From positions 256,001-320,000 of the forward strand of contig CBDFKD010000002.1 of the NCBI GenBank assembly GCA_965248695.1: 64,000 nt of DNA. Direction: 5' to 3'. Positions within the stretch are counted from its first letter, which is position 1, and each line of letters begins with the position of its first letter. A model generated the notes under the pieces. It made no database searches. It was not told the DNA's origin and saw only the letters and a program-made list of their open reading frames with translations. This DNA is from Acidobacteriota bacterium. Its GTDB lineage: Bacteria; Acidobacteriota; UBA890; WLXD01. The translations under genes were made by a program, and so were the position numbers. Shown here piece by piece: positions 4,305 through 50,959 of this stretch.

Positions 4305-4412
4305 GCGCCAATCGGGCGGTGGTTGTAGATTCTCCGTCGCGGGTAATCGATCCTCGTCCGCCCGCCGCCGGGCCCGTTGGACGGCGTCGCCGCCTACCGG
4401 AGCCCCCCATAA

Positions 4413-6005: not shown

Positions 6006-6039
6006 TCTCGCCCGCAAATCCCATCTGCGGCGCTTTCGA

Positions 6040-6060
6040 TTCATCTGTTACAGGCCACTA
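6040..6060 (-). repeat. 21-nt stop-codon-anchored repeat, copy 1
   Basis: TTCATCTGTTACAGGCCACTA is identical at 52380..52400. Confidence 0.7.
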
Positions 6061-7278
6061 GACAGGCGGCAGCCTCCAGTCTGCCGCCGCCCCGTCGAGC
6101 TCCTGCCGGAGGACATCCACCGCCTCGGTTCGTCTCTTCATGTTTCCCGCCTTGCCCTGAAACAGCGTCGCCGATCCGCCGCCGCGGCCACCGAGCAACT
6201 CGGCGATCCGGGGTCCGGGCCGGGTGAGTTCCACCGAGCAATCGGAGCCGCAGGCAAGCAGGAAGAAGTGCTCGCCCGCCTCAGACGCTGTCAGCAGAAC
6301 GACGCGGCTACCGACACCGGCGACGACATGTCGCGCCACCAGCTGCAGGAACTCGGCGCCAGCATCGTCGAAATGTGCCTCCATCAGCGTCGTATCGGAT
6401 TCCACCAGGCGGCCTGCGATCTGTCGCGCCAGCTCTCTTTCGAGGCGGCGAGCGCGCCGATCGGCCGCCTTGAGCTTCTCCAATCGGCCGGTGACGGCGG
6501 CCACGAGATCGTCGTTGCCGGCGTCGAGGACGGCGCGCAGGTCGCGGGCGCGTGCTTCGTGCTCGCCGAGCAAACCGCGCACCCGGCCGCCCGCAGCCCA
6601 ATGCAGTCGACATCCGCCGCGCATCGCCTCGACTCCGAGCAACTTGACCGCTTCGATCTCGGCGGTCGACGCCAGGTGAGTGCCGCCGCAGGCACAGACA
6701 TCAACGCCGTCGATCTCGACCAGGCGTACGCTGCCCTCATGCCCGGGGGGCATCCCGCGGCTGCGGACCTCGAGGGCACTCACCTCGGCAGGCGTCACCA
6801 GCCGGGCGCTAACGCGGCGGTTCGAACGCACCACCCCCATGACGGCATCCTCCAACCGTGCCAACGACCCACCGTCCGGGAGCGGTGTGTTGAGCTCGAT
6901 GTCGCAACGGCGGTCACCGAGATGAAATGAGGTGGTCTCCCAGCCGTGCTGCGCGTCCGCCACGGCGGTGATGAGATGTTGGGCAGTGTGCTGCTGCATG
7001 TGGTCGAATCGCCGCGACCAATCCAGCTGCAACCGCGCCGCACCCGGTTGCACCAGGCGCTCGACATAGTGGCGGATGTCCCGATCGACGCGCTGCACGT
7101 CGGTCACCGGCACGTCGCCGACCAGGCCGTGGTCGGCGGGCTGGCCGCCACCTTCCGGGTACAGGATGGTGTCGTCGAGGATGACGAAGGGGCGCCCGTC
7201 CTCGTCACCTGACGAGATCGCCTCGACATCGAGCTCGGTGAGATATGGCTCGCGCTGATACGCGTGCTCGTCACCCAT
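6058..7278 (-). CDS. Alanyl-tRNA editing protein (AlaX-L type, with DHHA1 domain)
   Basis: DTILYPEGGGQPAD, HMQQHTAQHL, CACGGTH zinc motifs and C-terminal GGRGGG; start taken at MGDEHAY. Confidence 0.85.
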   Translation of the reverse strand: MGDEHAYQREPYLTELDVEAISSGDEDGRPFVILDDTILYPEGGGQPADHGLVGDVPVTDVQRVDRDIRHYVERLVQPGAARLQLDWSRRFDHMQQHTAQHLITAVADAQHGWETTSFHLGDRRCDIELNTPLPDGGSLARLEDAVMGVVRSNRRVSARLVTPAEVSALEVRSRGMPPGHEGSVRLVEIDGVDVCACGGTHLASTAEIEAVKLLGVEAMRGGCRLHWAAGGRVRGLLGEHEARARDLRAVLDAGNDDLVAAVTGRLEKLKAADRRARRLERELARQIAGRLVESDTTLMEAHFDDAGAEFLQLVARHVVAGVGSRVVLLTASEAGEHFFLLACGSDCSVELTRPGPRIAELLGGRGGGSATLFQGKAGNMKRRTEAVDVLRQELDGAAADWRLPPV

Positions 7279-7418
7279 GGCGACACGGCTCCTGGTCTGA
7301 TTCAGACACGCGGACGCAGAATACAACGGCTGCCTCTGGTGGGCGGTAGCAATGTTGCCTCCGGATGCGGGCGCGCGTAGATTGCCCGGAAGCTCAGGCG
7401 TCACGAAGGAGATTTTCG

Positions 7419-8417
7419 ATGTCACGACCGATCACCCTTTTCACCGGTCAGTGGGCCGACTTGCCCCTGGCCACCCTGGCTGAGAAAGCTGCCGAGTGGG
7501 GCTTTGACGGACTCGAGCTAGCTTGTTGGGGTGACCACTTCGAAGTTGACCGAGCGCTCAACGACGACGCCTACGTGGGGGCCAAGCGGGACTTGCTCGA
7601 GAGTCGCGGACTGACCTGCACGGCGATCAGCACTCATCTGGTCGGACAGTGTGTCTGCGATCCGATCGACGAGCGCCACGAGGGGATTCTGCCGCCGCGC
7701 ATCTGGGGTGATGGCGATCCGGAGGGCGTGCGTCGGCGCGCCGGCGAAGAAGTCGCCAACACCGCACGTGCGGCGCGCCGCTTCGGCGTCGATGTCGTTA
7801 ACGGGTTCACCGGCAGCCGCGTGTGGTCGAAGCTCTACTTCTTCCCGCCCACGAGCCAGGCCGATATCGACGCCGGCTACGGCGACTTTGCGGCGCGCTG
7901 GCTGCCAATCCTGGACGTCTTCGCTGACCAGGGAGTGCGGTTCGCCCTCGAAGTGCACCCGACCGAGATCGCCTACGACATCATCACGTCGCGGCGGGCG
8001 CTGGACGCGATCGACGACCATGCGAGCTTCGGTTTCAACTTCGACCCCAGTCACCTGGTGCACCAGTTCGTCGAGCCAGTTGCGTTCATCGATGAGTTTC
8101 CGGACCGTATCTTCCACGTCCACGTGAAGGACGCTCGCGTGCAGCTGGACGGACGCAACAGCATCCTGTCGTCACACCTGGATTTCGGCGACCCTCGTCG
8201 TGGTTGGGACTTCGTCTCGCCGGGTCGTGGGGACGTCGAGTGGGATCCGATCATCCGGGCGCTCAACCGCGCCGGCTACGATGGCCCGCTGTCGATCGAG
8301 TGGGAGGACAGCGGTATGGATCGGGAGTGGGGTGCCCAGGAGGCCTTGCAGATGATCCGCGACCAGGATTTCGTCCCCTCGGACGTGGCGTTTGACGCCG
8401 CCTTTGCCGACGATTGA
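7419..8417 (+). CDS. Sugar phosphate isomerase/epimerase (xylose-isomerase-like TIM barrel, IolE/AP-endonuclease-2 family)
   Basis: [36 protein letters not shown]; RBS AAGGAG upstream. Confidence 0.85.
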
Positions 8418-38109: not shown

Positions 38110-39513
38110 GAGTTATTTGCAAATGTTGTGGATCGGTGGATTTGTTCAGGCGGCGTCTTCGCTAGCGATCAGGTGAACTCCATCGACGAATGTGGCGCCC
38201 TCGAGTACGAGGGCAGTGAGGTGAGGAGCGTTGATGCGGCGCCATCGTTGCTGTGCCATCTCCAGGAGCTTGAATGCCATCGTCAGCGCCTTGGTGCGTG
38301 AGCCGGCGCCCTTGGTGACGCGTTGTCTCAGGCGTACGGTGGCGAACGCCGACTCGATCGGGTTGGCCGTGCGCAGATGAACCCAGTGGTCGGCGGGGAA
38401 GTCGTAGAACGTCAGCAGCTTGTCGGAGTCGCGTTGCAACGACGCCACGGCCTTGGAGTACTTGGCGCCGTAGTCGGCTGCGAACCGCGCCATGCCCTCC
38501 TGAGCATCCTCGCGCGTTGGCGCACCGATGATCTCGTGCAGCGCGCGCTTGGCTTTGGCCTGCAGCCGCCTCGGTAGCTTGTCGAGCACGTTGCCAAGCC
38601 GATGCACCCAGCATCGTTGCTCTCGAGTCTGGGGCCATACATCCCGCACCGCCGCCCAGAACCCCAGCGCCCCATCACCCACTGCCACGAGCGGCGCCCG
38701 CATGCCTCGACGCTTCAGCTCCCGGAGCACGAACGCCCAGCTCTCGGTGCTCTCTCGATACCCGTCCTCGACCGCGATGAGCTCCTTGGTTCCGTCCGGC
38801 AAAACGCCCAGGATCACCAGCGTGCACAGCCGATCATCCTCGAGTCGAATGTTGAAGTGCACACCGTCCGCCCACACGTATACGTACTGCTTGGTGGACA
38901 GATCCAGCTTCCGGAATGCCTCGTACTCCGTGCTCCAGGCGTTCGTCAGCCGGCAGATCGCCGATGCCGACAGCCCGCTGGCTTCCTGTCCCAGTAAGAT
39001 CGGCAGCGCCTCCTTGAAGTCGCCCGTCGACAGGCCCCGCAGGTACAGCACCGGCAGCACCTCCGCCACCTTCGGCGAGCGCCGCATGTAGGGCGGCAGG
39101 ATCCGACTGCTGAACCGCTGCCTCAGTCCCTGCTCGTCGAGCCGCTTGTCGTTGACCCGTGGCGCGGCTACTTGCACCGTCCCGCACCCCAACGTGATCT
39201 TGCGTGCGCGAGCCCGACCGTTGCGTACCACTTGCCGACGGCCGGCTTCATCCAGTTGCCCGGCGTGGCTCTGGATATACTCCTGAACCTCCCACTCCAG
39301 TGCTGTTGCCAGCATCTGCAGCGCGCCCTGCCGGGCGAGCTCATCGACGTCCAGTGTCAGCTGTCCTTCCTCCGCGTCCGATCCACCGATAATCTTGAGC
39401 ACGAGTGGCGTCTCCTTCCCGGCCTCCACAGCCGGCTGCTGGTTGTTGATGATCCCAGCGAAGGTTACGCCGCCTTTCTTTTTCCTCCCATCCACAACTT
39501 CCGGTTATATCTC
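38110..39513 (-). mobile_element. IS256-family element, copy B (appears identical to copy A; transposase 38146..39495)
   Basis: Same TIRs, length and protein as 20811..22214; flanks GGCACGGCA / CGCAAGCAC are not duplicated. Confidence 0.95.
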
Positions 39514-40935
39514 CGCAAGCACCTGGTGCTGCTATCGACGGGTTTCACTGATCTCATGCTAGAAGGCATGGACCTTGATAGTCAGGCGGCATTTTCGGAG
39601 GTCAGGTTGAGGGGCGGCGTGCCCCCAAGCTACATGGATCCCGCATACGAGAGCGGATCGCCCGAGGTACGCGCTGCGATCGGAACGGCGGTGCAGAAGC
39701 TGTTGGAAGCCGACGGTGTGATCCATGCGCTGGATCCGCGTGGGCTGCTTGCCCCGGGTGGCGACGCGAGTGAAATGGCCCCTGCCAATAGTCGTGGGCC
39801 CCGGGCTGGGGGCGATGGTCGGGAGGCACTCTACTATCTGGCCTCCGAAACCGGAGGCCAGGCCCATTGGAACCTCAACGACTTGACACCTGCGTTCGCC
39901 CAGGTGGAAGAGGCCACGGCCCACTACTACGTGGTGGCGTATCGCAAACAGCCCACCGATCCGAACACCGTCAGCATCCATGTCCAGGTGCAGCACCCGG
40001 ACATGGAGGTGGTCTCAGCGCCTCGACGGCTCACCACGCCACGGGACTACCAGGACATGAGCGAGGCGCAACAACAGCTGCTTCTGGCCGAAGCCATGAC
40101 GCACGACACCGACGTGGTGGCCATGGCCTTGGACGCCAAGACGGTGAGCTTTCCGGCGCCCTTGGACTCCACACCTTCCGTCGCCGTGTTGCTTCAAGTT
40201 GCGGGAAGAGATCTGGAGCGGGTAGCGGCACAACGGGGCGATGACAAAGTGGAGCTTGAGATCGCTTGTTTGGCCCTCGGTCCGGATCACACGGTATTGG
40301 ATTACGCTCGACGCCGAGTCGGTATTGATGTGGCCCGGATGCGGGCCGCGGGACCGATGCAAGCCCAGTCGTTTCGCCACACGGAGTTTGTCGATGTGCC
40401 CGTGGGCGAGGGTCGGGTGCGGATCTTGGTGCGGGACTCCGAGGTGGGCGACCTCACTGCCACCACGCGGCAATACGACGCGGTGACACTGCCACAGGGC
40501 CTGTTCCTGGCGCAGCCGATCGTGGTGGATGCCTACCGGCTACCGCCGATACGCGGCGACTCCGAGGGGTTCGATCCGCTGCTGCTGAAGGGACAACGCC
40601 TCGTGCCGTCGCCGGTGCCGAGTGTTGTTCCGGGTGGAGGGATCGAGGTTCTGGTTGTCCTTTACAACGTCTCATCGGACTCCACGCCCGCGCAGCTGGT
40701 GGCGGCCACGACGGTGCAGTTACAGGATGCTGCGGGGAGCGTGCACGTGCTGCCGAACCTTCAACTAAAAGCCTCCCAGGTCATTGAAGATGCCAACGCC
40801 GTGCAGTTGCTGTTGGGCGCCTCGGTACCGTCGTACACGACCCTAGGCCAGGCTCAGCTTACGGTTCGGGTTGCTGACCATCTTGGGGGGCGAGCGGTAC
40901 AGGAGGCTACGCAGCTCGTTGTCACTGCGCGCTGA
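39514..40935 (+). pseudogene. 5'-truncated acidobacterial VWA-related domain protein
   Basis: Begins at the IS edge with RKHLVLLSTGF, then LASETGG, YYVVAY; no start codon of its own. Confidence 0.65.
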
Positions 40936-41032
40936 GGCACCGAGCGCATGGCTAAGCTCGAAGGCTCCGTCACTGGCTTCATGCGCGCCAACCAGCCCAC
41001 GTAGGGACGCATCCGGCAGCAGTAGCACCATC

Positions 41033-41117
41033 TCACCGCCTCGGCACCGGGTTGGTCAGGCGCAGCTCCGAAGCCCCATGGTCACGCCCGTTGATGCAGG
41101 GTGACCACCTACCAGGT
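41033..41117. repeat. ~67-bp island direct repeat, copy 1 (plus shared extension)
   Basis: TCACCGCCTCGGCACCGGGTTGGTCAGG...CCATGG...GATGCAG; homologous to 41652 and 46506. Confidence 0.85.
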
Positions 41118-41321
41118 GATCGCAATGCGAAACGCGAAAAGGAGTGGACTATAATTACGAAAACCCGGCCATGTGCGTGACCGGGCTTTCAGAAGAATCA
41201 GATTTGTGTACCAGCGATTCGCGGGGGCTAGTCGCTGTCGGGCGTGGGCCGCCCGAAGTGTGTCTACGGTACCGCTTCGGCCCACTCCCGCGCAAGCACT
41301 CGCCCCAGGAAGCAGTGCGCC

Positions 41322-41576
41322 TGAAGAGATAACAGCTGAGGGGTCGCCATCTTGTTCCTCACGCCCGACGACAACCAAATACCCGGTCGGGGAAGGAGGT
41401 GAGAGCTATGGCTAAATGTCCACCGAAAAAGCGCGTAAAGCGCATCGTTCGACCAGGCAAAAAGCCAGGACCAAAGCCGGTGCGTGTCAAGCCGCACCGG
41501 CGGTCCCCACCGTGCAAGTAGACGGCTAGGTTGACCTGCTGAAGCCCCTGGCGGCCCCTCAGCTGTTATCTCTTCA
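41322..41576. repeat. 28-bp inverted repeat (41322-41349 / 41549-41576) enclosing a small ORF
   Basis: TGAAGAGATAACAGCTGAGGGGTCGCCA versus TGGCGGCCCCTCAGCTGTTATCTCTTCA, 27/28 complementary. Confidence 0.9.
41408..41521 (+). CDS. 37-aa Lys/Arg/Pro-rich small protein, not in the ORF track
   Basis: AAGGAGGTGA RBS shortly upstream of the ATG; MAKCPPKKRVKRIVRPGKKPGPKPVRVKPHRRSPPCK*. Confidence 0.6.
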   Translation: MAKCPPKKRVKRIVRPGKKPGPKPVRVKPHRRSPPCK

Positions 41577-41651
41577 AAGTTCCAATGATAACAAAATTAC
41601 CTGATTGTGGAGACCTCCCGTCAACCCATGCGTTTCCTGGTAATCGAGTAG

Positions 41652-41732
41652 TCACCGCCTCGGCACCGGGTTCGTCAGGTACAGCTCCGAGGCCCATGGC
41701 CACGCCCGACGATGTAGAGGCCCCTACCAGGT
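41652..41732. repeat. ~67-bp island direct repeat, copy 2 (plus shared extension)
   Basis: TCACCGCCTCGGCACCGGGTTCGTCAGG...GATGTAG. Confidence 0.85.
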
Positions 41733-41907
41733 AACGGCGATCCCTACCGCCACACCCGGCTCCCAGCCGCCCCCGGGGCTCCGCACACCACCCCCGAGCG
41801 TCGCTTTCCATGTCGTCGAAATCGAACCTTCAGCCTTGTCGGCGTAATCTTGTTCGTTGCTCATGCTTCGGCCCTGTGCATTCCGAGGGGCGGCGGGCGT
41901 GGCTTCC

Positions 41908-43059
41908 TTATAGGGCTGACAGACGGCGTCCCCATCCGTCTGTTAGAGCCGTTGAAGTAATGATGTCCCGTACCTTCACAAGCGTGTCTCGGCTGTGCGC
42001 GTAGGAGATCGCGCCTCGGTATTGCAGTTGGCCTGCGACAATTCCGGGGTGGACATTGTTCATCTTTGCGAATCCCCGAATCTTCTCTTTGTAGAAGAAC
42101 GGAGTAGTCTCGCTGATGAAGCTCGATAGCTTCTTCTGGTCCACGAGAAACGCCGCTGCGAACGCATCTACTTTTTGTTCGGCATCACTGATCGCCTGGG
42201 TTCCTGCTCGTGCTTGAGCCGAGGCAAGAAGGTCTACGTCAATCTGCATTGTGCGGTCTAACAGGCCGTCGCGATTCATGACGTGACCTAACTCGTGCAC
42301 TAATCCGAACCAGAACGAGTCGATCCGGTCGAAGCGCATCGAGATAGCGACGACGGGCGAGTGGCGATCCAGCCACAGGCAGGCACCGTCAATCTTCGTG
42401 CCTTGAAGATGCTCAATCACAACTAATCTGACCCCGCCCTCAGCAAGGATCGCCGGCACGCGTCGAATCTCATCTTCCACATGGAAACATTGGCGAAGTT
42501 CCTCAAGACAGCGCGCGAACCGTGTTTCCGTGAACCTTCGCGCCTGTAATGTGTGCGCCAACTGCCGGGCGCGATACAGCCAAGCGTTTTGCGCGGGCGT
42601 TGTTTCTGTATAGATCGTTCCTTTTCGCGCGGCGTGTGGAAGGCGGCGCGGGTTGTCCTCGATCTTCTGGATTTCGAAGAAGCTAAGGATCTGTTCCTCA
42701 AGCACATCTACGCTTTCGGTGGCCTGAAGCCAGCCGCGCCGGATCATCTCCGCGACCGGCGCCTTCTCATAGAGCTTCGCTTTGCGCCGAACGTCATCCG
42801 TCCCCGACACCTCGGTCTTCCAAAGCTGGTAGATGCTCCCAAGGCTCAGCCAAAACTCAGGTCCGGTATCAAAGGCTTCGCCGAACACAACCGCAGTTTC
42901 GGTGGAAACGCCACGCTTCCCGTTGATGACCTCGTTTATCAATGTGAGTGGCCTCCCAGTGATCTCTGCGAAGTCTCTTTGGCTCCATCCCCGAGCCTCT
43001 AGCTCGTCGCGGACAAACTCTCCAGGCGGAAATGCCTCAGCTAGCTTGTTCTTCATCAC
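41908..43059 (-). CDS. higA: HigA-family antitoxin (XRE HTH) fused to ImmA/IrrE-like metallopeptidase domain
   Basis: FPPGEF..ELEARGWSQ..FA...INEVINGKRG...FWL; later KIDGA, RFDRIDSFWF.LVHELGH (HExxH). Confidence 0.85.
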   Translation of the reverse strand: MMKNKLAEAFPPGEFVRDELEARGWSQRDFAEITGRPLTLINEVINGKRGVSTETAVVFGEAFDTGPEFWLSLGSIYQLWKTEVSGTDDVRRKAKLYEKAPVAEMIRRGWLQATESVDVLEEQILSFFEIQKIEDNPRRLPHAARKGTIYTETTPAQNAWLYRARQLAHTLQARRFTETRFARCLEELRQCFHVEDEIRRVPAILAEGGVRLVVIEHLQGTKIDGACLWLDRHSPVVAISMRFDRIDSFWFGLVHELGHVMNRDGLLDRTMQIDVDLLASAQARAGTQAISDAEQKVDAFAAAFLVDQKKLSSFISETTPFFYKEKIRGFAKMNNVHPGIVAGQLQYRGAISYAHSRDTLVKVRDIITSTALTDGWGRRLSAL

Positions 43060-43071
43060 GCGACCTCACTT

Positions 43072-43368
43072 TCAGTGGTAGTCCTCGATGCCTTTGATGA
43101 GCACTCGTTTTTCTTTTCCCTTGCCTCGAATCTCAAGAATCAGTCTGAACTGCTTGTTGAGCATCATGGAACGCTCGTGACTGCGGTTGCCCTTCAGCTT
43201 CTCGAAATGCAGTCCTTTCTGCTTGTAGAACACGCGCTCATCGGGCGCCGCCAGGATCGATTGCAACCGCTTGCGAAACGCTTTGATCACGGCGCGTGAG
43301 TAGCCGCCTGTAAAGCTGGCGTCCTCCGCCAGGCGTTCCGCGTCCCTGGTCGCGAACTCAACGTCCAT
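43072..43368 (-). CDS. higB: HigB/RelE-family toxin (plasmid maintenance system killer)
   Basis: LHFEKLKGNR...SMMLNKQFRLI, IEDYH; lies upstream of the antitoxin. Confidence 0.85.
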   Translation of the reverse strand: MDVEFATRDAERLAEDASFTGGYSRAVIKAFRKRLQSILAAPDERVFYKQKGLHFEKLKGNRSHERSMMLNKQFRLILEIRGKGKEKRVLIKGIEDYH

Positions 43369-43554
43369 TCGCCAAGGGTAGCGCGAATCGGGCACGAGTT
43401 CAATATCAGAATTCCACGTGTTACGTGAAAGCGTTGAATTCTGGTAAACTGCGTCGAACCTTACCCTGCTAGGCCGCAACGTAGATGATCAACCTTCAGG
43501 TCGCCGTCTCTTCTTCGCCACGCGCCGCGGCCGTTCCTGCGCATAGAAGAGCCG

Positions 43555-43752
43555 TTATCGACAAACATCAATCTCTAGTCGTTCAGCCTCTTCCAAGAAA
43601 GCCGTTTCCTCTCGATCGAAGCGCTTCTGTAGGCTCTCTCTGACAACTCCAAGAGACGGAGATTGAGGGTCGTCGGCCAAGGCGTGTTCAAGTTGCGCCA
43701 TAGCCTCCAACGTGCGCTGCACGTCTTCCTGTAGATCCAAGAGTCGAGACAT
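43555..43752 (-). CDS. Small hypothetical protein, probably a truncated fragment
   Basis: 65-aa helical ORF in an AT-richer island, ends abruptly. Confidence 0.4.
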   Translation of the reverse strand: MSRLLDLQEDVQRTLEAMAQLEHALADDPQSPSLGVVRESLQKRFDREETAFLEEAERLEIDVCR

Positions 43753-43794
43753 CTATACGAACTGGATCTTATGCGCAGGTTGCGCAGTCATTGT

Positions 43795-44010
43795 CTAGTC
43801 CCGTCTTGGCCAGCGCACGAAGGCCGGGATTCGGCCAGCTTCCTCATATTCCCGAATAGCAGCGAGCCTCATCCGCTCCCGGATCCACGTGGATAGCCCA
43901 ATTCCTGCCATCTCAGCCGCTTCCTTGAAAGCCTGCTTCTCGACGGCGGAAAGGCGAATATGCACCAATTCGTCCCTGGGTAACTGAGTTTTCGGCCTTC
44001 CCTTGACCAT
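43795..44010 (-). CDS. Ribbon-helix-helix (CopG/MobC-like) DNA-binding protein
   Basis: GRPK...VHIRLSAVEKQAFKEAAEMAGIGLSTWIRERM pattern. Confidence 0.7.
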   Translation of the reverse strand: MVKGRPKTQLPRDELVHIRLSAVEKQAFKEAAEMAGIGLSTWIRERMRLAAIREYEEAGRIPAFVRWPRRD

Positions 44011-44019
44011 GCTCAATAT

Positions 44020-44082
44020 TGTACACACAATAAATACACAAACCAACAGAATTGCCTCGACTGTGTATTTATTGTATGTACA
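44020..44082. promoter_or_regulatory. 21-bp inverted repeat operator upstream of the RHH gene
   Basis: TGTACACACAATAAATACACA-N21-TGTGTATTTATTGTATGTACA, 20/21 complementary. Confidence 0.7.
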
Positions 44083-44146
44083 GATCTAAAAACCGACGAC
44101 CTTCTGGGCCATGCTGTCACGCAAACGATGGCAAAATAAACTCTCT

Positions 44147-45670
44147 CTAGGGCTGATCTTCGGCCTTGGAGTAGCGCTTGGGCGCGCCCGAAAGCTCCAG
44201 CAAGGCGTTGATCGCCGTCTTGAGGCCCCTGGCCTGTTGCTCTAATCCAGCGAGCTTGGGATCCGGCCCGAGTCCTGTGGAAATAAAGATGGCGTAACCT
44301 CCGAGTAGGAAAAACACAAAGCCGCCACGAGCGGCAGGAGGCTACGCCGTGAAGCAGGTTAGCACGGAGGGAACCGGGCTCGTCGAGTTCCGGCAGGACG
44401 TACAGGCGCTGTTGCGCACCAGGATCCGCGAGGCGATCCAGATGACGCTTGACGAGGAGCTCACCGAGGCGCTGGGTTGCGACCGATACGAGCGCAACGG
44501 GCAGCGGCGAGGCTACCGCAACGGCAGCCAAAGGCGTCGGGTGACGACAGCCCAAGGGCTCCAGGAGCTGGACATACCGCGGGGGCGCATCGTGGGGCAA
44601 GACGGCAGCACCCGAGAGTTCCGCAGCGCGATCCTGCCACGGTACGCACGGCGAGCCCGGCAGGTGGACGAGGCGATCCTGGGAGCATACCTGGCGGGAG
44701 CCAACACCCGGCGGATCCGCAAGGCGCTCTCTCCGCTGCTGGGCAAGGCGCACCTGACCAAGAGCACGATCTCCAGGGTGGTGGGGCGCCTGAAGGCGTA
44801 CTTCGAGCGCTGGAGACAGCGAGATGTGTCAGGCGAGCGGTACTGGATCCTGTATTTGGACGGGTTCCATCTGAAGGTCAGGCTGGCGAGGCGGGTCGTG
44901 TCGGCGCCGGTACTGGCGGTGCTCGGGGTCCAGCCCGACGGCCAGAAGGTGTTGGTAGCGTTGCAGTTGGCGGTCTCGGAGGCAGCGGTGCACTGGCAAG
45001 GACTGATCGAGTCGCTGGTGAGACGAGGGCTGCAGGCGCCGGAGGTGCTGATCGCCGACGGCCACAAGGGCCTGGCCAAGGCGATCGAGGTATGGCCCGA
45101 TGTGTCGGTGCAGCGGTGCACACAACACAAGTGGAGCAACTTACGCGACCACTGCCCGGTTCATGCACGTGCGGAGATGAAGCGGGACTGGGATGCGATC
45201 GTCCGGGCCGATGACGGCAACCAGGCCAGAGCCGCCTACGCCGCCTTCGTACGCAAGTGGTCGACCCTCGTGCCCGCCGTGGCCCGGAGCCTGCAGGAGG
45301 CCGGCTTGAACCTGCTGACTTTCTACCAGTTCCCGAAGCCGATGTGGAAGACGCTGCGCACCACCAACGCCCTCGAGAACCTGAACCGGGAGTTCCGTCG
45401 TCGTACCAAGACGCAGGGCTCGTTCTCGACCGAGGCCGCTGGGGTGACGTTGCTGTGGAGCCTGGTCGCCTTCGGCCAGATCCGCATGCGACGCATCGAT
45501 GGCCACCGGTTCTTGGCTCAGCTCACGTGCGGCCCCGACAAACAGGCCGCCTAACCGATAGGATCATCCGTCGTCGCGGAGGAGACGCTCATCCAATTTC
45601 CACGACATTCGGGGCACATCCCGAGCTTGTCTTCCAAGCTCTCAATGCTGGCTCGGTGTTCGTCCGCCAT
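44147..45670 (-). pseudogene. 50-aa coiled-coil ORF interrupted by IS256
   Basis: GGAG RBS; MADEHRASIESLED|KLAGLEQQARGLKTAINALLELSGAPKRYSKAEDQP* is restored on removing the IS and one target copy. Confidence 0.6.
44259..45621 (+). mobile_element. Second, distinct IS256-family element (transposase 44349..45554)
   Basis: TIRs GGATCCGGCCCGAGTCCTGTGGAAAT / ATTTCCACGACATTCGGGGCACATCC; 8-bp TSD CGAGCTTG; motifs YRNG, LYLDG, IADG, QRCTQH, RTTNALENLNRE. Confidence 0.95.
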
Positions 45671-45979
45671 AGCCGTTTCTCCAGTTCGAGACTTGACGGC
45701 CCAACGCGGTGGCAACTACGCTAGACAAAGCTAACGCTGTCGGCCCCGAGGGGGTCGATCACGCAGTCGAACTCGCTGGTACGAGTCGGCTGCCGGTCCA
45801 AAAAGCTACCTAATAGAGATGTGCTCAGGATCCATTGCAACTCAGGGTGCCGATCCGGGCTGCCCGCGTTGCGGTAGCACCGCCGTATACAAGATGAAAG
45901 ACAGTCCGCGGGACTCGCTAAACTGCTTTTAGAAGTTGCTATAAAACCTCACGTTCCAGCGATGGACCGTGGGCGAAGG

Positions 45980-46011
45980 CCCCGCCGCTTGCGGCGGGGT
46001 TCTTTCTTTTT
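45980..46011 (+). terminator. Intrinsic terminator-like hairpin directly upstream of the NYN ORF
   Basis: CCCGCCGC-TT-GCGGCGGG followed by GTTTCTTTCTTTTT. Confidence 0.7.
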
Positions 46012-46023
46012 GGGGAGGCTCCG

Positions 46024-46160
46024 ATGGCAGCAACGCAACGAGGGATGGTCTTCGTTGACAGTTCGAATCTCTATTACGGCCTCAAGCGCATCGGCTTCAA
46101 GATGTACCACCTTGATTTCGTGAAGTTCGCCGATCAACTCCTTCTCGGACGGCGCGCTAC
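46024..46160 (+). pseudogene. N-terminal fragment of a NYN/LabA-DUF88 (PIN-like) ribonuclease
   Basis: GGAGG RBS, MVFVDSSNLYY...LDFVKF motif; similarity is lost after about 45 codons. Confidence 0.6.
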
Positions 46161-46232
46161 AACGTGGCTTGCGATCCGCATCTTTCCTCTATCGCTCGTC
46201 ACTGTGACGTTTGCCAGTCTTGAGAATCTACG

Positions 46233-46493
46233 ATGCCTCCAAGTATTTCTTACCTCGCCGACGAAAAGTCGGATAGCAACTCTTGGTCGGTTGAACAAAT
46301 GCTGGCTAGCGCCCTCTCCGATATCCAGAAGGGAGAGCGGGCTGCTACAAAAGCTATCGTCCTGTTTCTAGACGATAGCGATGAACAGTACAACGTAGGG
46401 TTTAATCAATCGGGATTCCGCATGTCTGAGGCGATCGCCCTGATCGAAGTTGCCAAGATTACATTCCTGCGAGAAATGGGCCACCTGGAATAA
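46233..46493 (+). CDS. Small hypothetical protein (phage/island-like)
   Basis: 86-aa ORF with globular-protein composition, ending 12 nt before repeat copy 3. Confidence 0.5.
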   Translation: MPPSISYLADEKSDSNSWSVEQMLASALSDIQKGERAATKAIVLFLDDSDEQYNVGFNQSGFRMSEAIALIEVAKITFLREMGHLE

Positions 46494-46505
46494 TACGGAA
46501 CCGCC

Positions 46506-46572
46506 TCACCGCCTCGGCACCGAATTGGTCAGGCACAGTTCTGAGGCCCCATGGTTGCGCTCGACGATGTAG
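46506..46572. repeat. ~67-bp island direct repeat, copy 3
   Basis: TCACCGCCTCGGCACCGAATTGGTCAGG...GATGTAG. Confidence 0.85.
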
Positions 46573-46577
46573 GTGGT

Positions 46578-46855
46578 CTAGTCCAGCCGCAAGACTTCTG
46601 CTGGGCTCGTATTGAGCGCGCGTATTGTTGGGACCATCACAGCCATTGCGCCGACCAACAGTAGAATCAACCCAGTATTGATCAGAACCATCGGATCTGC
46701 GGGCGATGTCTCAAAAAGAACGCTCCGCAGCCAGCGGCTCGCAACCAGGATAAGCACACCACCCGCAATTAGCCCAACCGCCACCGATGCAAGGGTGTCA
46801 CCGACCGATAGCCTGATTAGTTTCCACCGCGGCGCACCGATGGCCCGTCGGATGC
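46578..46855 (-). pseudogene. 3' fragment of an FtsX/ADOP-type ABC permease
   Basis: IRRAIGA, LFETSPADP, PTIRALNTSPAEVLRLD*. Confidence 0.7.
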
Positions 46856-47506
46856 GCATTCAGCTGGGGCTTAAAGCTGCGGCTGTTCGACTCCAATCCA
46901 GTCCAAGGCCTCGTGCCACCGGCACCGCCAAGCGATCGCCGGTCGCTAACCGACCAGGAGCGCCACAGGGTGCTCCATGAAGCACGCTACCGTGACGTGT
47001 GGTTCACGTACTTGCTCACCGGGCTTCGGGCTTCCGAGCTCGCCGAGCTGCCGACCGACAGCGTGAAGCTCGACACTCCGGCTCCGCATCTGGTCGTCGT
47101 GGGCAAGGGGTCCAAGGAGCGCATCGTGCCAATCCACGGGCACGATGCGGTGTCACACTTTCGGAAGCTCGTGGCCGACGCGAGGGTGCGGCGCGATTCC
47201 CGGTTGATGCCGTGGAGGACGCGAAGGGTGCAGGGGCTTTGGCAGCAGGATCGAGAACGTCTGGGCTTGCCCGAGGACATTACGATCCACACGTTCCGGC
47301 ACACGTACGGGACGTTCATGGCGTACCGAGACCTCGTGGGAACGCAGCGTGCGATGGGGCACTCGGACATCAAGACGACGATGCTGTACGTGCACGATGA
47401 CGACCGCCTGATCCGGGAATCGTCGGTGCAATGGGGAGCTGTTTTGCATGGCGATGAAGCCCGGAATGGTACAAAATCGGTACCACATTCGAAAAATCCC
47501 AAGTAG
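46856..47506 (+). pseudogene. N-terminally truncated tyrosine recombinase/integrase (catalytic domain intact)
   Basis: AFSWG...NP, TGLRASEL, GKGSKER, HTFRHTY, MGHSDIKTTMLY. Confidence 0.85.
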
Positions 47507-47517
47507 AACAAGTGTTC

Positions 47518-48230
47518 CCGGTGTTCTGCATAAACACCGTCAGATCCTCCCGACCCTCTACTGTCAGCACGAAGCTGATGGCGCCGCCGTGCGGCGTGCG
47601 GAGACTCTGTTCCGGGTCCGGCGGCTCGGTGAGCTCGGCGTGTGGCCCCGGACCACGCTCGACAGGCCACCAGTGACCGTTGCGTACGACGCGAATGCTG
47701 ACATCGTCATACTCGAGCAGGTCGCCGTCGCCGACTACTGTGCAACGCTCTGGCCGCAGCCCCTGAGCCTGGGCCACGAAGCACGTGGTGGGTGTGCCCA
47801 CCGCCTGCGCGCCGGTGAACAGCGCCGTTGCGCCGAGATCGGAGATATGGTCGAAATGCGCGTGGCCGATGAGGATGGCGTCCACCTGCTCGGCCCCCGC
47901 CGCCTGCAGCACTCGCTGGATCTGCGGCATGCCATCGATATGCGGCTCGCCGCCGAAAGCAGGTCGGCTGTAGTACGCGTCGAACAGCAGCGTCGTGCTT
48001 CCGACGCGCACCAGCCAATTCGACACTCCGAGCCAGACCATCTCGACGGATTCGACCGTCGACGTCTCCCGCGCAGGATCCGCCCCGGAACCCGACCCCG
48101 ACGAGCTCGAGCAGGCGATTCCACTCGACGCCACCAGCAGCAGCGCCATCATGAGACAGACCGGGTGGCGGTATCGCGACCGCCCCGCCCGTCGGCGACG
48201 CGCTACATAGGTGATCGGTGATCTCGGCAT
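47518..48230 (-). pseudogene. MBL-fold metallo-hydrolase (lipoprotein), 3'-truncated at the island edge
   Basis: WLGVS, LLFDAY, GHAHFDHISD; the frame runs into integrase-end sequence after VFMQNTG. Confidence 0.65.
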
Positions 48231-48291
48231 GATTGCCTCCATCGGTTGAAGCACAGCAGGGGAAGCGTTTTGACGATCACGCCAGCTAACG

Positions 48292-49473
48292 CTAGAGCAC
48301 CAAGCGTTCCGCGTGCGGCCGGCCACAGTGAATGTTGGCGAGCTCTGCACCGTAGCCACCGACGTTCAGCAGCGCCAGGATGTCGCCCTCACGAACCTCC
48401 GGCAGCTCCGCCTGGTCGGCGAACACGTCGCGCGCCTCGTTGATGTGTCCAGCCACGGTATAGCTCCCGGTCGGCTTGGCGTCGGCGGCCCGGCAGACCA
48501 CGATCTCCTGCGGCTCGCGGTACAGGTAGGGAATGCCACATGCGTTATAGCCGCCGTCCAGGCCGACAAACTTGTTGCCGCGGCGCTCGTCGATGCCGAC
48601 CACCTCGACCAGAAAGATGCCGGCGTCGCGGGCCAGAAAATCGCCCGGCTCGCACATGATCGGGACGCCGAGTGGCCCGAAGCTCGCCTCGATCAAGGCC
48701 GCGTAGGCATCGAGATCGACCGGGTCTGCAGACGCCAGCAGCGGCACGCCGATGCCGCCGCCGACGTTGATGTAGTCGAGATCCTGAAGCCGTGCGGCAA
48801 TCTCACCGACCACGATTACCGCCTGGCTGAAGTCTTCGATGCCGTACTGTAGCCAGCCCGATCCGATATGAAAGTGCAGCCCCCGCACCTGTAACTGGTA
48901 CTCGGACGCGAGCGCCAGCGCCTCGTCCACCTGCTCCGGGTAGATGCCGAACTTCGACGGCCAGCTGCCTTCCGCTGTGGTGCGCGTCGAGTACGTCCCC
49001 ACGCCGGGGTTGAGTCGCAGCCCGATGGTCCTTCCCGGGGCACGCTCGCCGACGTGGCGGATGGTGCTCATCGAGTCGAGGTTGAAGATCACCGGCTGCG
49101 CCAGAATCCGCTCGAGGTCACGCTGGCTGAGGTTGGTTCCGGTGTAGGAGATCTGCTGCGCACGCCAGCCGGCACCCAGCGCCATGTCCATCTCGCTCGG
49201 CGAGCACACGTCCACGCCGACGCCGGTGCCGTGCATCCGGGAAACGATATCGGGGTGGCGATTGCACTTCAGAGCGTAGAGCAGGTGATGGCGCACGCCG
49301 GCATTCTCGAGGGCACGCTGCAGGCGCCCGAGGTTAGCCACCATGCGAGCGCTGTCGTAGACATATAGCGGCGTGCCGTTGGCACGCGCCAGCTCCTCGA
49401 CGTCGCGACCCGCGATCGTCATCCGACCGTCACGCACCTCGAGCCCGTCACGATTCCACCATGGTGTCGTCAT
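48292..49473 (-). CDS. lysA: Diaminopimelate decarboxylase-like PLP enzyme (Orn/DAP/Arg decarboxylase family)
   Basis: GTPLYVYD, YALKCN, SKFG, HFHIGS, NVGGG, EPG. Confidence 0.75.
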   Translation of the reverse strand: MTTPWWNRDGLEVRDGRMTIAGRDVEELARANGTPLYVYDSARMVANLGRLQRALENAGVRHHLLYALKCNRHPDIVSRMHGTGVGVDVCSPSEMDMALGAGWRAQQISYTGTNLSQRDLERILAQPVIFNLDSMSTIRHVGERAPGRTIGLRLNPGVGTYSTRTTAEGSWPSKFGIYPEQVDEALALASEYQLQVRGLHFHIGSGWLQYGIEDFSQAVIVVGEIAARLQDLDYINVGGGIGVPLLASADPVDLDAYAALIEASFGPLGVPIMCEPGDFLARDAGIFLVEVVGIDERRGNKFVGLDGGYNACGIPYLYREPQEIVVCRAADAKPTGSYTVAGHINEARDVFADQAELPEVREGDILALLNVGGYGAELANIHCGRPHAERLVL

Positions 49474-49628: not shown

Positions 49629-50144
49629 ATGCGAAAGCTCCTCTTGGCGGTCTCGGTGCTCGTGGTTTTCGTCGGTGCCGCTTCGGCCGGCGCCCAGAGT
49701 GGGGTCCGGAGAACGATCCGCGACGGCGATGTGTTCTCCTATCAGCCCATCGGCTTCGGCTTCATGCGTTGGCAGGTCGCGTGGACCAAGAACGCCGACT
49801 TCGACATCCTCATCGAGGGCATTACCAACGGGGAGATCTTCAGCGTCTGCGCCGGACAGTCATTCGACACCGCCTTCGAGCTTTGTGAGCACGGGCTGGG
49901 CGCCGACTCCTACCTGATGACCATCTTCTCGGTCGACGGTGCCACGTCTGCCAAGGGGTCTTTGATGATCCAGGAGTCCGTGCCGGAGGACAACTTCCGC
50001 GGCGCTCGACGTCGAAGCCAGGGCAAGCGCGAGGGCCTCAACTACCTCGGAAATATCCACGACGACACCTCCGACCGGCTGCTGATCGAGGCTCGCAGCA
50101 GGTCGGAGGCGCGCCGCAACACCAAGGCTCGACGGGACCGCTAG
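49629..50144 (+). CDS. Secreted hypothetical protein
   Basis: GGAG RBS, signal peptide MRKLLLAVSVL...AGA. Confidence 0.6.
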   Translation: MRKLLLAVSVLVVFVGAASAGAQSGVRRTIRDGDVFSYQPIGFGFMRWQVAWTKNADFDILIEGITNGEIFSVCAGQSFDTAFELCEHGLGADSYLMTIFSVDGATSAKGSLMIQESVPEDNFRGARRRSQGKREGLNYLGNIHDDTSDRLLIEARSRSEARRNTKARRDR

Positions 50145-50299
50145 CAGGCCGTCGTGGAAGTGTGGCGGGCCTGGTTGCGCGCGGATGCTGCGTCGTTCGT
50201 CGTCAACGATGGGGTAACCATCGCCTCCTCCTCTCTCCTTGCCTCCACATCGCAAGACCCTGTCGCCAGACCCGCCATACTTTCACGACGGCCTGCTAA
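50141..50299. mobile_element. MITE-like element, short form (159 bp), opposite orientation to 10423..10701
   Basis: CTAGCAGGCCGTCGTGGAAG...TTTCACGACGGCCTGCTAA; interior matches the first module of the long copy. Confidence 0.85.
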
Positions 50300-50959
50300 C
50301 CGGCTTCAACAATTCGGCCAGCGCCCCAAGGCGTTCGCCCCACCCGGCACGCGCCGCGTCCGCAGCCGACTTACTGGTCAGCTTGCTGTGCTGAACCGCA
50401 ACCTGGCTCTTGGAATCACCCTTGGCCGTGAAGTACGCGTTGACCTGGGTGCCGTCGCCCAGGACATGCGTAGCGACTTGTTGCGCGTCGAGGTTCGAAT
50501 CTCGAGCGCGTCATTGTCTAGCCACCGCTGCCGCCGACGCTTCTCGCTGAACGCCCGGTAGAGCGTCTCGATCGGAACGCCGACGGTCTTGCTCTTGTTG
50601 ACGTCGTAGCCACCGCCGCGACGCTGGCCGGGGTCCCGGAGCCCGCGGAGGCGCTCATACCCGACCGTCACCATCTGCGCCCACCAGCCCGACACCTCGA
50701 AGTTGTCGTGCACGTACTGCGCGATCTCACGATGCGGCATGGAGACAGCCTGGGCCCGATCGAGTACCTGGACCCATTGCTTCCACGTCTTGCCGGTCTT
50801 GGCGGCGACGGCATCGTCGCTCATCCCGGCGAGCGCTGCAGGATCTGCTGGTAGCGGTGGCAGCTTGCCGACCAGCTGGGCGCGGGCGGCGGTATAGGAC
50901 TCGCCGGTCTTGTCTATGCGCCCACGAATGAGGCGCTTGAGGTCCCTTTGTTTCGGCAT
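50283..50959 (-). CDS. Hypothetical protein (DUF4287/SRPBCC-like C-terminus) with two apparent homopolymer frameshifts (~50460, ~50340)
   Basis: MPKQRDLKRLIRGRIDKTGESYTAAR, KTGKTW..W, GWWAQMVTVGYE; continuation DGTQVNAYFTAKGDSKSQVAVQHSKL in another frame. Confidence 0.6.

Follow-up and report, generated by a model that had tools for sequence, protein, structure and literature searches.

Direct repeats beside a truncated tyrosine integrase are probably spacers left by the stacking of phage modules in an Acidobacteriota prophage remnant

The window, a 64,000-nt stretch of DNA from an Acidobacteriota bacterium, contains three direct repeats of about 67 nt next to a tyrosine integrase gene. The repeats are probably a non-coding spacer from the 3' side of the stop codon of a phage gene, here called gene X, and relics of the stacking of phage modules in a decayed prophage. 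On this reading they are phage patchwork and not a new gene-capture system. The region is composed of the following features:

39514..40935, plus strand: VWA-domain gene of Acidobacteria type, 3' two-thirds only (cargo unit 1), convergent on copy 1
41033..41100, minus strand: spacer repeat copy 1, its sense in the orientation of gene X
41108..41126, minus strand: 3' stub of gene X, 19 nt, ATTGCGATCACCTGG-TAG-G, corresponding to gene X nt 673-691, TAG at 41109-41111
41127..41651, no strand assigned: unique 525-bp segment (cargo unit 2) between copies 1 and 2
41652..41717, minus strand: spacer repeat copy 2, with a 1-nt deletion relative to the other copies
41723..41831, minus strand: 3' stub of gene X, ending in …GGGWEPGVAVGIAVTW and a stop, TAG at 41724-41726
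41908..43479, minus strand: HigB-like ORF (43072-43479) and HTH/M78 peptidase ORF (41908-43059) of cargo unit 3
43555..44046, minus strand: small ORFs of cargo unit 3, one of 65 aa (no family) and one of 83 aa (NikA-like/DUF6290, ribbon-helix-helix type)
44259..45621, plus strand: IS element that interrupts cargo unit 3, its transposase of the Mutator family (IS256-type)
45904..46152, plus strand: start of an NYN-domain gene that breaks off after about 43 codons, 99.2% identical to G001 L058 8228-7980
46233..46493, plus strand: ORF of 86 aa without a known family, convergent on copy 3
46506..46572, minus strand: spacer repeat copy 3
46578..46859, minus strand: C-terminal 93-aa fragment of an ADOP/FtsX permease, with its natural stop TAG at 46578-46580
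46854..47523, plus strand: 5'-truncated tyrosine integrase, coding to 47506, element end at 47523

The three repeats are real and share one orientation. The 17-nt block TCACCGCCTCGGCACCG is exact in copies 1, 2 and 3; allowing up to two mismatches, it matches the window three times, against 0.07 matches expected from 100 shuffles. Pairwise identities are 81-85% (58/68 between copies 1 and 2, 55/68 between copies 1 and 3, and 56/67 between copies 2 and 3), with BLAST E-values of 3e-11 to 6e-14. CCATGG is present in all three copies, the minus-strand TAG codons lie 5-8 nt ahead of them, and the frames ahead of copies 1 and 2 end in IAITW and IAVTW followed by a stop, much as the initial annotation had described. 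The annotation had also reported an internal dyad, GCCTCGG..CCGAGGC, which is perfect in copy 2 only; the second arm reads CCGAAGC in copy 1 and CTGAGGC in copy 3. Folded with RNA parameters, none of the six sequences (three copies, both strands) is more stable than its shuffles (z from -1.0 to +0.86), and the predicted folds differ from copy to copy. Beyond the repeats, the homology of copies 1 and 2 continues through the last part of the upstream gene, as far as 41126 for copy 1 and about 41792-41831 for copy 2. Copy 1 forms the right-hand edge of a segmental duplicate of 1.6 kb, in which 39514-41126 is 97.6% identical to C2:5556286-5557897.

A genome-wide search identified five copies of the repeat in the 5.9-Mb genome: c1 to c3 in the window, c4 at the C2 duplicate, and c5. 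Four of the five are located directly 3' of TGG-TAG-G, the stop of gene X or of a gene X stub. The repeat was matched in one of ten other genomes of the family, again 3' of gene X, and exact-pattern scans of viral contigs and genome contigs found no repeat.

Gene X encodes a phage-restricted protein of 230 aa and is located 3' of the endolysin in prophage late regions, where it directly follows an SLT-type endolysin (phrog_669, E 4.9e-28; Pfam SLT) and lies behind tail-fibre-like ORFs. The protein is hydrophobic in an N-terminal segment and at its end, …GVAVGIA[IV]TW, with a coiled-coil-like middle. It is probably a spanin-like lysis protein, and gene X would be the last late or lysis-region gene in a narrow family of temperate Acidobacteriota phages. 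Of 401 genomes sampled in the phylum, three carry the gene, and eight such proteins are present in a collection of 5.8 billion; the nearest Atlas clusters are viral. The window contains no intact gene X, only the 3' stubs of 19 nt and about 70 nt ahead of copies 1 and 2; for the longer one, DNA homology covers 70 nt and a protein-level match reaches 41831. Of the two origins proposed initially, duplicated gene or element ends comes close to what is seen for copies 1 and 2, each of which is a gene X 3' stub plus spacer.

Gene X stubs vary in length from 19 to 278 nt. The nine stubs of genomes G000 and G001 begin at gene X nt 408, 467, 552, 568, 578, 607, 619, 630 and 673, and no upstream motif common to their 5' ends was found. 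Their 3' side is sharp: in the gene X loci compared, homology always ends at TAGG (at position 6004 in one comparison), the downstream DNA differs, and at least four unrelated sequences adjoin gene X 0-10 nt past its stop. Every stub is colinear with its downstream cargo, as seen in the X1397/X5218, L038/L058 and window/c4 pairs. Locus X1397 is 97.2% identical to the X5218 stub over 432 nt, across TAGG, and L038 5958-6521 is 98.8% identical to L058, starting 43 nt before the stop. The full-length gene X loci X2744, X1397 and G001 L059 lack the spacer or carry at most a diverged proximal part. Decay of the spacer differs by lineage: it is whole in c1-c4, reduced to the distal 40 nt in c5 and two G001 loci, and reduced to the proximal ~22 nt in G004, whose gene X gives a piecewise match. 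All four lineages retain the distal 27 nt, a hint that this part may have a function; variable columns number 4/27 in the distal and 13/39 in the proximal part, a difference that is not significant.

The site directly 3' of gene X or its stubs carries variable cargo in three related Acidobacteriota genomes, G000, G001 and G004. The cargo includes HigB/HigA, ParE/HTH, NYN (HEC-09), N6_Mtase, RadC and PD-Lambda-2_B-like genes as well as several ORFs without a family, and its units are stacked, each led by a gene X stub of differing length. Two 98%-identical G001 prophages diverge from 4 nt past the stop codon onwards, and all G000 gene X loci differ after TAGG. The site thus has the properties of an accessory-gene hot spot: a fixed slot by a conserved phage gene, variable content, and toxin-antitoxin (TA) and defence cargo.

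The window contains three such units. An IS256-type element (38110-39513) truncates the VWA gene of unit 1 at 39513; the intact 731-aa paralogue of this gene matches TIGR03436, and homologues in the relatives are at most 42% identical. Unit 2 has a 28-nt inverted repeat (41322-41349 and 41549-41576) around a 37-aa basic ORF (41408-41521, plus strand); neither a second copy in the genome or in ten relatives of the family nor a family match was found. The toxin-antitoxin-like pair of unit 3 matches Pfam HigB-like_toxin, HTH_3 and Peptidase_M78, PADLOC PD-Lambda-2_B (E 2e-38) and NCBIfam antidote_HigA. The IS element inserted into this unit has about ten identical copies in the genome and is missing from some contigs (joint 44250 to 45622). 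The full NYN gene at G001 L058 matches Pfam NYN and PADLOC HEC-09. The permease fragment, whose stop lies 5 nt before copy 3, covers residues 31-120 of 120 in Pfam FtsX and 713-802 of 803 in NCBIfam ADOP, and its paralogues are at most 41% identical.

We propose that units were stacked behind gene X, each led by a stub, so that every unit dragged the spacer along and it became a repeat. The gene X site would hold different TA or defence cargo in different phages. From the anatomy of the loci, the joining step would be recombination between related phages or prophages, linking a point past one cargo to a random point in the last ~20-280 nt of the other gene X. The product would have the order gene X, cargo A, gene X stub, spacer, cargo B, and the process could be repeated. 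Copies 1 and 2 with their stubs would thus recur because units were added one behind another, and the window would be an IS-ridden remnant of such a stack, with three units and no intact gene X. The adjacent type of truncated integrase may belong to the same phage family. A 143-nt repeat of 98% identity that flanks 3.9 kb at G001 L059 looks like a recent, cleaner event; equally, it could be a Campbell-type insertion. This repeat and the retained distal 27 nt count among the observations that stand against stacking. In addition, copy 3 follows the permease fragment, with the joint within ~6 nt of its stop, which is unlikely to arise from random joining unless microhomology (CTGG..TAG) or past selection was involved. 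The sharp abutment 0-10 nt past the gene X stop also fits a site-specific process. Furthermore, the gene X family is present in three genomes only, a small sample, and these genomes are related.

The initial annotation named, as one option, recombination sites for cassette capture by the neighboring integrase. This option lacks support, as the integrase is truncated, the stub lengths are random and excision joints are unseen in the contigs of four runs. The window gene corresponds to residues 120-335 of a 335-aa paralogue (96% identity) and misses residues 1-119; the boundary of its element is 17 nt past its own stop, and homology to the paralogous locus ends at 47523. No repeat accompanies the intact paralogue (C2:2774603-2775750) or other members of the clade. 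PF00589 has 13 matches in the genome, and just one of them, the truncated gene of the window next to copy 3, lies within 20 kb of a repeat. Integrase fragments are located 0.3 kb from copy 3 and 3.5 kb from c4 (141 nt). More broadly, the gene X end and the 67-nt spacer could form an active att- or attC-like site, served by a phage recombinase in trans, or the place of Campbell-type recombination of circles carrying cargo and a stub. Such a site would account for direct repeats that bound cargo units, the exact 17-nt block common to the window copies, the recurrent breakpoints at TAGG, the parting of the near-identical G001 prophages 4 nt after the stop, the 143-nt repeat of G001, and the integrase fragments near copy 3 and c4. 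One low-depth contig is also joined precisely at 41723 (the G of TAGG), which puts the HigB-like cassette behind another stub. However, the 5' ends of the stubs are scattered without a common motif, and stubs move with the downstream cargo, whereas integration of a circle predicts upstream cargo. A recombinase gene is absent from the arrays whose ORFs were listed, the nearby integrase is truncated, and in the integrases of this type examined the element end adjoins the gene's own 3' end. The exact 17-mer occurs four times in the genome, in c1-c4 only; all copies share the same arm on one side, and none consists of the core alone. Since 17-mer near-matches (one or two mismatches) lack further homology, no stand-alone partner site was found. 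Contigs from public runs bridge c1-c2 as assembled, and those of four runs of one sample contain no c1/c2 or c2/c3 deletion joint, although contigs drop rare variants. The relatives lack a locus orthologous to that of the window repeats. We consider an active site of this kind quite unlikely. It is also improbable that the gene X end and spacer constitute an integron-like phage cassette platform run by a hitherto unrecognised recombinase or by phage recombination functions; if they did, defence and TA cassettes would be captured and stacked behind lysis genes by an integron-like, non-integron system.

The spacer could instead recur because each unit needs it, as a functional cis-element where the late operon ends: a protein-binding site, a Rho- or factor-dependent terminator, or a signal related to convergent cargo. 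This explanation is compatible with stacking. It is in line with the sharp end of the spacer, which falls on one and the same base (TCA/TGA) in all of four lineages that differ in their downstream DNA, with the survival of a distal block (two CGGTG motifs, 11 nt apart) even in the c5 type, which has an internal deletion and is present in two genera, and with the constant position of the spacer between convergent genes. We nevertheless regard it as unlikely: no intrinsic terminator, promoter consensus or Rfam family was found, the folding is no better than that of shuffles, and covariation is uninformative (a double change in 1 of 22 predicted pairs, four sequences). In addition, X2744, X1397 and G001 L059 do without an intact spacer, G004 retains only the first ~22 nt of the spacer, and conservation is not significantly higher in its distal than in its proximal part. 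It is very improbable that the repeat encodes …YI[IV]GRDHGASELxLTNPVPRR and a stop, as a read-through extension, a small overlapping lysis gene of the o-spanin type or a target gene's displaced 3' end. Homology does stop exactly at TGA, the frame of c4 and c3 runs on from the upstream ORF across TAG, and several differences are synonymous. However, the frame relative to the upstream gene is 0 in c4, +1 in c1 and c2, and +2 in c5 and in a relative; the 1-nt deletion of copy 2 falls in the frame, and the internal deletion of c5 is not a multiple of three. The third-position excess noted at the outset is weak (variable columns by codon position 5/5/7), and these columns reveal no coding signal in the spacer. 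The proposed tblastn search found no parent gene in the genome, four of five gene X homologues fetched end in …TW without an extension (the fifth is cut short), and c2 and c3 lack a start codon. The window has no tRNA gene and thus no suppressor. A dispersed REP- or MITE-like element without a tie to phages has a negligible probability. Copies do lie in intergenic gaps between convergent genes, right after stops, but the genome holds only five, each tied to gene X stubs or the same island, which rules out for this genome the dispersed REP-like repeat that the initial annotation had allowed for. Moreover, the single match among ten other genomes of the family is behind gene X, the scans of viral and genome contigs were empty, and a hairpin is absent, with the dyad perfect in one of three copies.

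The stacking of phage units offers a detailed view of accessory-gene acquisition by the temperate phages of a little-known soil phylum: units are added serially behind the last late gene, each leaving a datable gene X stub. Should further genomes show the same pattern, the stubs could be used to find phage cargo, as candidate defence genes, in Acidobacteriota and to work out the order of its acquisition. Direct repeats next to an integrase may be inherited gene-end debris and not recombination sites.

REP, BIME or REPIN elements and MITEs have many dispersed intergenic copies and a palindrome or terminal inverted repeats, whereas the repeat described here has five copies in 5.9 Mb and neither structure. 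The arrays resemble those of integrons in their small serial units, the repeat at each boundary and the nearby tyrosine recombinase gene. However, they lack R''/R' core motifs, and their cargo has its own operons and mixed orientation. As stated initially, GTTRRRY and RYYYAAC are absent, here from both strands of four of four copies. Integron attC sites are hairpin-forming palindromes, whereas the repeat folds no better than shuffles. The full-length integrase paralogue scores 44.3 bits on the IntI model TIGR02249, against a cut-off of 265, and the window copy is truncated. Tandem accretion is also known from the CIMEs and ICEs of streptococci. The ssrA-specific islands of Dehalococcoides similarly combine serial cargo with direct repeats that duplicate a single gene's 3' end, and their description places integration modules beside the site in 16 of 31 (PMC3146451). 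In contrast, the units described here lack a recombinase in the arrays whose ORFs were listed and have variable stubs, and the target is a phage gene instead of a host RNA gene.

P2-like phages and P4-like satellites have hot spots of accessory (moron) and anti-phage defence genes at fixed genome places, and their description proposes exchange between co-resident phages as the mechanism (PMC9122126). The site behind gene X shares with them the fixed slot by a conserved gene, content that varies between close relatives, and TA and defence cargo. It differs in being behind the lysis region instead of beside cos, in its uncultured Acidobacteriota hosts, and in its serial units, each with a core-gene stub and a common spacer. 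In mycobacteriophage Island3, an inserted gene is flanked by ~50 bp duplicated from the 3' end of the gene before it, and the last 18 codons of gene 68 repeat those of gene 67; the authors interpret the duplicate as recombination at or near gene boundaries (PMC3029335). The phage units of the window likewise have inserted genes flanked by the duplicated 3' end of an upstream gene. However, Island3 is a single case, whereas here up to three stubs occur in a row and nine in two genomes, together with a shared 67-nt spacer past the stop codon.

The three direct repeats reported by the initial annotation lie in the window in one orientation, reading in the sense of the minus strand. Five copies are present in the 5.9-Mb genome, two of them outside the window (C2 is the contig that contains the window, which spans C2:256001-320000).

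Copies of the repeat in the genome
Copy 1: 41033-41100, minus-strand sense
Copy 2: 41652-41717, same orientation
Copy 3: 46506-46572, same orientation
Copy 4: C2:5557805-5557875
Copy 5: C2:5215366-5215415, internally deleted

The 17-nt block TCACCGCCTCGGCACCG is exact in copies 1-3 and, with up to two mismatches, matches the window three times (0.07 expected). Pairwise identities among the window copies are 58/68, 55/68 and 56/67. The central CCATGG occurs in each of the three window copies, the minus strand has a TAG 5-8 nt ahead of every one of them, and copies 1 and 2 are preceded by frames ending in IAITW* or IAVTW*, all as annotated; the attC core motifs are likewise absent. The dyad ascribed to the repeat is perfect in copy 2; in copies 1 and 3 it is imperfect, and no fold beats shuffles on either strand. 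The claimed excess of third-position differences is weak (5, 5 and 7 variable columns per codon position). A 27-nt exact degenerate pattern has no match in either viral_contigs or genome_contigs, scans that may omit records near this genome. Copies 1 and 4 lie at the ends of a segmental duplicate of 1.6 kb (window 39514-41126 and C2:5556286-5557897, 97.6% identical). One coding end, …GVAVGIA[IV]TW-TAG-G, precedes copies 1, 2, 4 and 5 on the minus strand, and the gene end therefore belongs to the repeat.

The shared coding end recovered a gene family by tblastn, here called gene X, with three full-length members in this genome.

Full-length copies of gene X
C2:2744061-2744750
C2:5214671-5215357
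C2:1397659-1398342

The gene X product has 230 residues; as read from its sequence, it begins with a hydrophobic N-terminus, continues through a long middle rich in Ala, Glu, Gln and Arg, and finishes with the hydrophobic end. An endolysin gene is directly upstream (phrog_669, E 4.9e-28; Pfam SLT), and tail-fibre-like ORFs also lie upstream. No Pfam, PHROG or NCBIfam family matches gene X, and its nearest Atlas clusters are viral. Position and composition suggest that gene X is a spanin-like lysis gene. It is rare, with representatives in 3/401 genomes sampled from the phylum and eight proteins in a collection of 5.8 billion. None of the 20 pattern matches in viral_contigs was confirmed; genome_contigs holds one true relative, identical to the related genome G004, and two short, weak matches, and metagenome_contigs one weak partial match.

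The 67 nt are a spacer that formerly stood behind gene X in one lineage. The spacer is whole in copies 1-4. Its distal 40 nt alone are left in copy 5 and in two loci of the related genome G001, its proximal ~22 nt alone in G004, and a diverged proximal part remains in the G001 locus L059. The frame YI[IV]GRDHGASELxLTNPVPRR*, for which a search for a parent gene had been suggested, is absent from five fetched gene X homologues; four of these terminate in …TW and the fifth is truncated, so that none carries a read-through extension. Searches of the genome with two versions of the peptide by tblastn returned the repeat copies only, and then noise. Relative to gene X the frame is 0, +1, +1, +2 and +2 across spacer lineages; the spacer is therefore neither a read-through tail nor an overlapping gene, and an overlapping o-spanin-type gene was rejected on account of this inconsistency.

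Other identities of the spacer were rejected as well. As to a structured RNA, the spacer has no Rfam match, and a search of 40500-47600 with E up to 1 gave nothing apart from three chance-level matches elsewhere. The alifold covariation term (-0.31, four sequences) is uninformative, and the folds are no better than those of shuffled sequences. There is no terminator or promoter consensus in 40800-41900. A tRNA-derived attachment site was discarded, as the window contains no tRNA and the repeat no tRNA-like motif by eye. A host origin was sought in the neighbors: the VWA-type gene adjoining copies 1 and 4 has no close orthologue in 10 relatives (≤42% identity), nor does the permease fragment near copy 3 (≤41%), and for this reason no empty site was found.

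Homology between gene X loci, compared pairwise, always ends at TAGG, and the sequence beyond differs at each locus. The 67-nt spacer together with a VWA gene of the Acidobacteria type is one of the sequences seen in this slot. The other cargo there comprises a HigBA pair, a segment containing RadC, a 237-aa ORF accompanied by an XRE-type regulator, ParE/HTH, an NYN gene (PADLOC HEC-09) and an N6-methylase gene. Among the cargo of the window are a HigB-like ORF and an HTH-M78 protein matching PD-Lambda-2_B (E 2e-38). Two G001 prophages that are 98% identical diverge from four bases past the gene X stop codon; their left edges fall inside paralogous kinase-like genes. The slot behind gene X thus acts as a hot spot for phage accessory genes. 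The cargo ORFs that belong to no family may be candidate defence genes. The start of the NYN gene in the window (45904-46152) is 99.2% identical to G001 locus L058 (7980-8228), from another genus and with a different flanking order, an indication that phage cargo was shared recently.

When the loci are searched with gene X by BLAST, 3'-terminal stubs of the gene are found behind cargo. Cargo units accumulate in the slot and are not merely exchanged.

Gene X stubs
G000 (the genome of the window), C2:5218115-5218235: 121 nt
G000, copy 4 locus: 228 nt and 82 nt
G000, window, before copy 2: 70 nt
G000, window, before copy 1: 19 nt
G001: 278, 143 and 59 nt, consecutive
G001: 114 nt

The 5' edges of the stubs are at gene X nt 408, 467, 552, 568, 578, 607, 619, 630 and 673. 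The stubs are colinear with the cargo downstream of them; a unit is thus a stretch of donor genome reaching from an arbitrary point late in gene X through the cargo. The 121-nt stub and the next 311 nt are 97.2% identical to the full-length locus C2:1397659 across the TAGG, and a 564-nt segment that is 98.8% identical between G000 and G001 begins 43 nt before the stop codon. In L059 (G001:C2:3763000-3777000, reverse strand 3520-7690), a 143-nt repeat of 98% identity, made up of the final 114 nt of gene X, a TAA stop codon and a further 27 nt, brackets 3.9 kb. This segment starts with an IS5-like transposase gene (family assigned by eye) inserted at TTAA.

The window contains no intact gene X and no late genes. 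Its repeats are best read as leftovers of phage cargo units that were stacked in a now decayed island.

Order of features on the minus strand
C-terminal fragment of an ADOP permease, ending in TAG
Copy 3
Cargo 3: 86-aa ORF, NYN-gene start, IS256-type insertion, two small ORFs, HigB-like and HTH-M78 ORFs
Gene X stub, then copy 2
Cargo 2: 525 bp, with a 37-aa ORF inside an inverted repeat
19-nt stub, then copy 1
Cargo 1: VWA-type gene cut by a second IS256-type element

Three kinds of IS element lie in or beside the island. Cargo 2 is unique in the genome, absent from 10 relatives and matches no family. At 41322-41576, its 28-nt inverted repeat (96% complementary) brackets a Lys/Arg/Pro-rich 37-aa ORF (41408-41521, plus strand), with GGAAGGAGG just upstream of the ORF. 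An AT-rich palindrome at 44020-44082 (two 21-nt arms that are 95% complementary, separated by 21 nt) overlaps the 5' end of a NikA-like/ribbon-helix-helix ORF (43795-44046) and may be an operator. The ~160-nt repeat at 50139-50301, with 33-nt inverted ends and dozens of genome copies at 82-95% identity, looks like a MITE.

Four public sequencing runs carry the region. All belong to a single study and a single sample, from which the assembly itself may derive, and they are available as contigs, which are blind to rare excision products. Contigs span copies 1-2 as assembled (39487-41805 and 41061-44288) with zero differences. A deletion joint between copies 1 and 2 or 2 and 3 is not listed in the contigs of the four runs. 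Some contigs in runs X2 and X3 lack the IS256-type (Mutator-family) element at 44259-45621, which makes this insertion polymorphic in the population sampled; the joint 44250->45622 has eight ambiguous bases, probably the target duplication. One X3 contig, at depth 2.9, has joints 43457->41723 and 41786->41693, which place the HigB-like cassette behind a 64-nt stub, and the stub behind 30 nt of spacer. This contig hints at other stack orders in the population.

The integrase ORF next to the repeats (46856-47506) corresponds, at 96% identity, to residues 120-335 of the 335-aa integrase encoded at C2:2774620-2775627. The integrase is not of the integron type (profile score of the full-length paralogue 44 bits, cut-off 265). 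DNA homology with the paralogous locus stops at 47523, 17 nt past the stop codon, which marks the integrase element's own end. The truncated integrase and the truncated permease join head to head at 46854-46859, a rearrangement joint. Ahead of the intact paralogue lie an excisionase-like ORF (HTH_17) and a pentapeptide-repeat ORF. The same neighborhood recurs 24 kb downstream of the gene X copy at C2:5215357, there around an integrase of 34% identity (C2:5238716-5239831), so this integrase type may belong to phages of the gene X family; if so, the attachment site adjoins the integrase gene and not the end of gene X. Loci L041 (C2:2770000-2780000) and L078 (C2:5236000-5243000) have a common order of pentapeptide-repeat ORF, excisionase-like ORF and integrase. 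Their pentapeptide ORFs are near-identical by eye and their integrases 34% identical, which looks like integrase-module exchange within one phage family. In window 47370-48359 and L041 3861-4757, a host ORF (MBL-fold in the window, ABC-transporter-like by eye in L041) enters the element end and continues antisense through the integrase gene, suggesting that the element inserts into 3' parts of genes.

From the anatomy of the units we infer how they were joined. The simplest route would be one crossover, illegitimate or at short homology, that joins two related genomes; these could be phages in a co-infection, a phage together with a prophage, or units of a concatemer. Such a crossover would tie the DNA past one cargo to a point within gene X of the other genome. 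The surviving products would be those in which gene X is intact and the stub short, long duplicates being lost through homologous recombination or the packaging limit. No common sequence was seen in the 60 nt upstream of the stub edges. A site-specific or Campbell-type cassette process is unlikely, and we retain it at a low probability on account of four misfits: copy 3 follows the stop codon of the permease and not of gene X; several cargos abut the gene X stop codon at a distance of a few bases; G001 has the clean 143-nt, 98%-identical repeat around 3.9 kb; and the distal block of the spacer persists across lineages (copies 1-4, copy 5 and two G001 loci). Cassette capture at the repeats, one of two explanations offered initially, is unsupported, and the other, a duplicated gene end, is essentially right.

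The feature is a variant of known phage mosaicism and of modest novelty. A single case of such joining has been described for mycobacteriophages (PMC3029335). The gene X slot resembles the phage accessory-gene hot spots outlined in PMC9122126, in which variable content occupies a fixed place.
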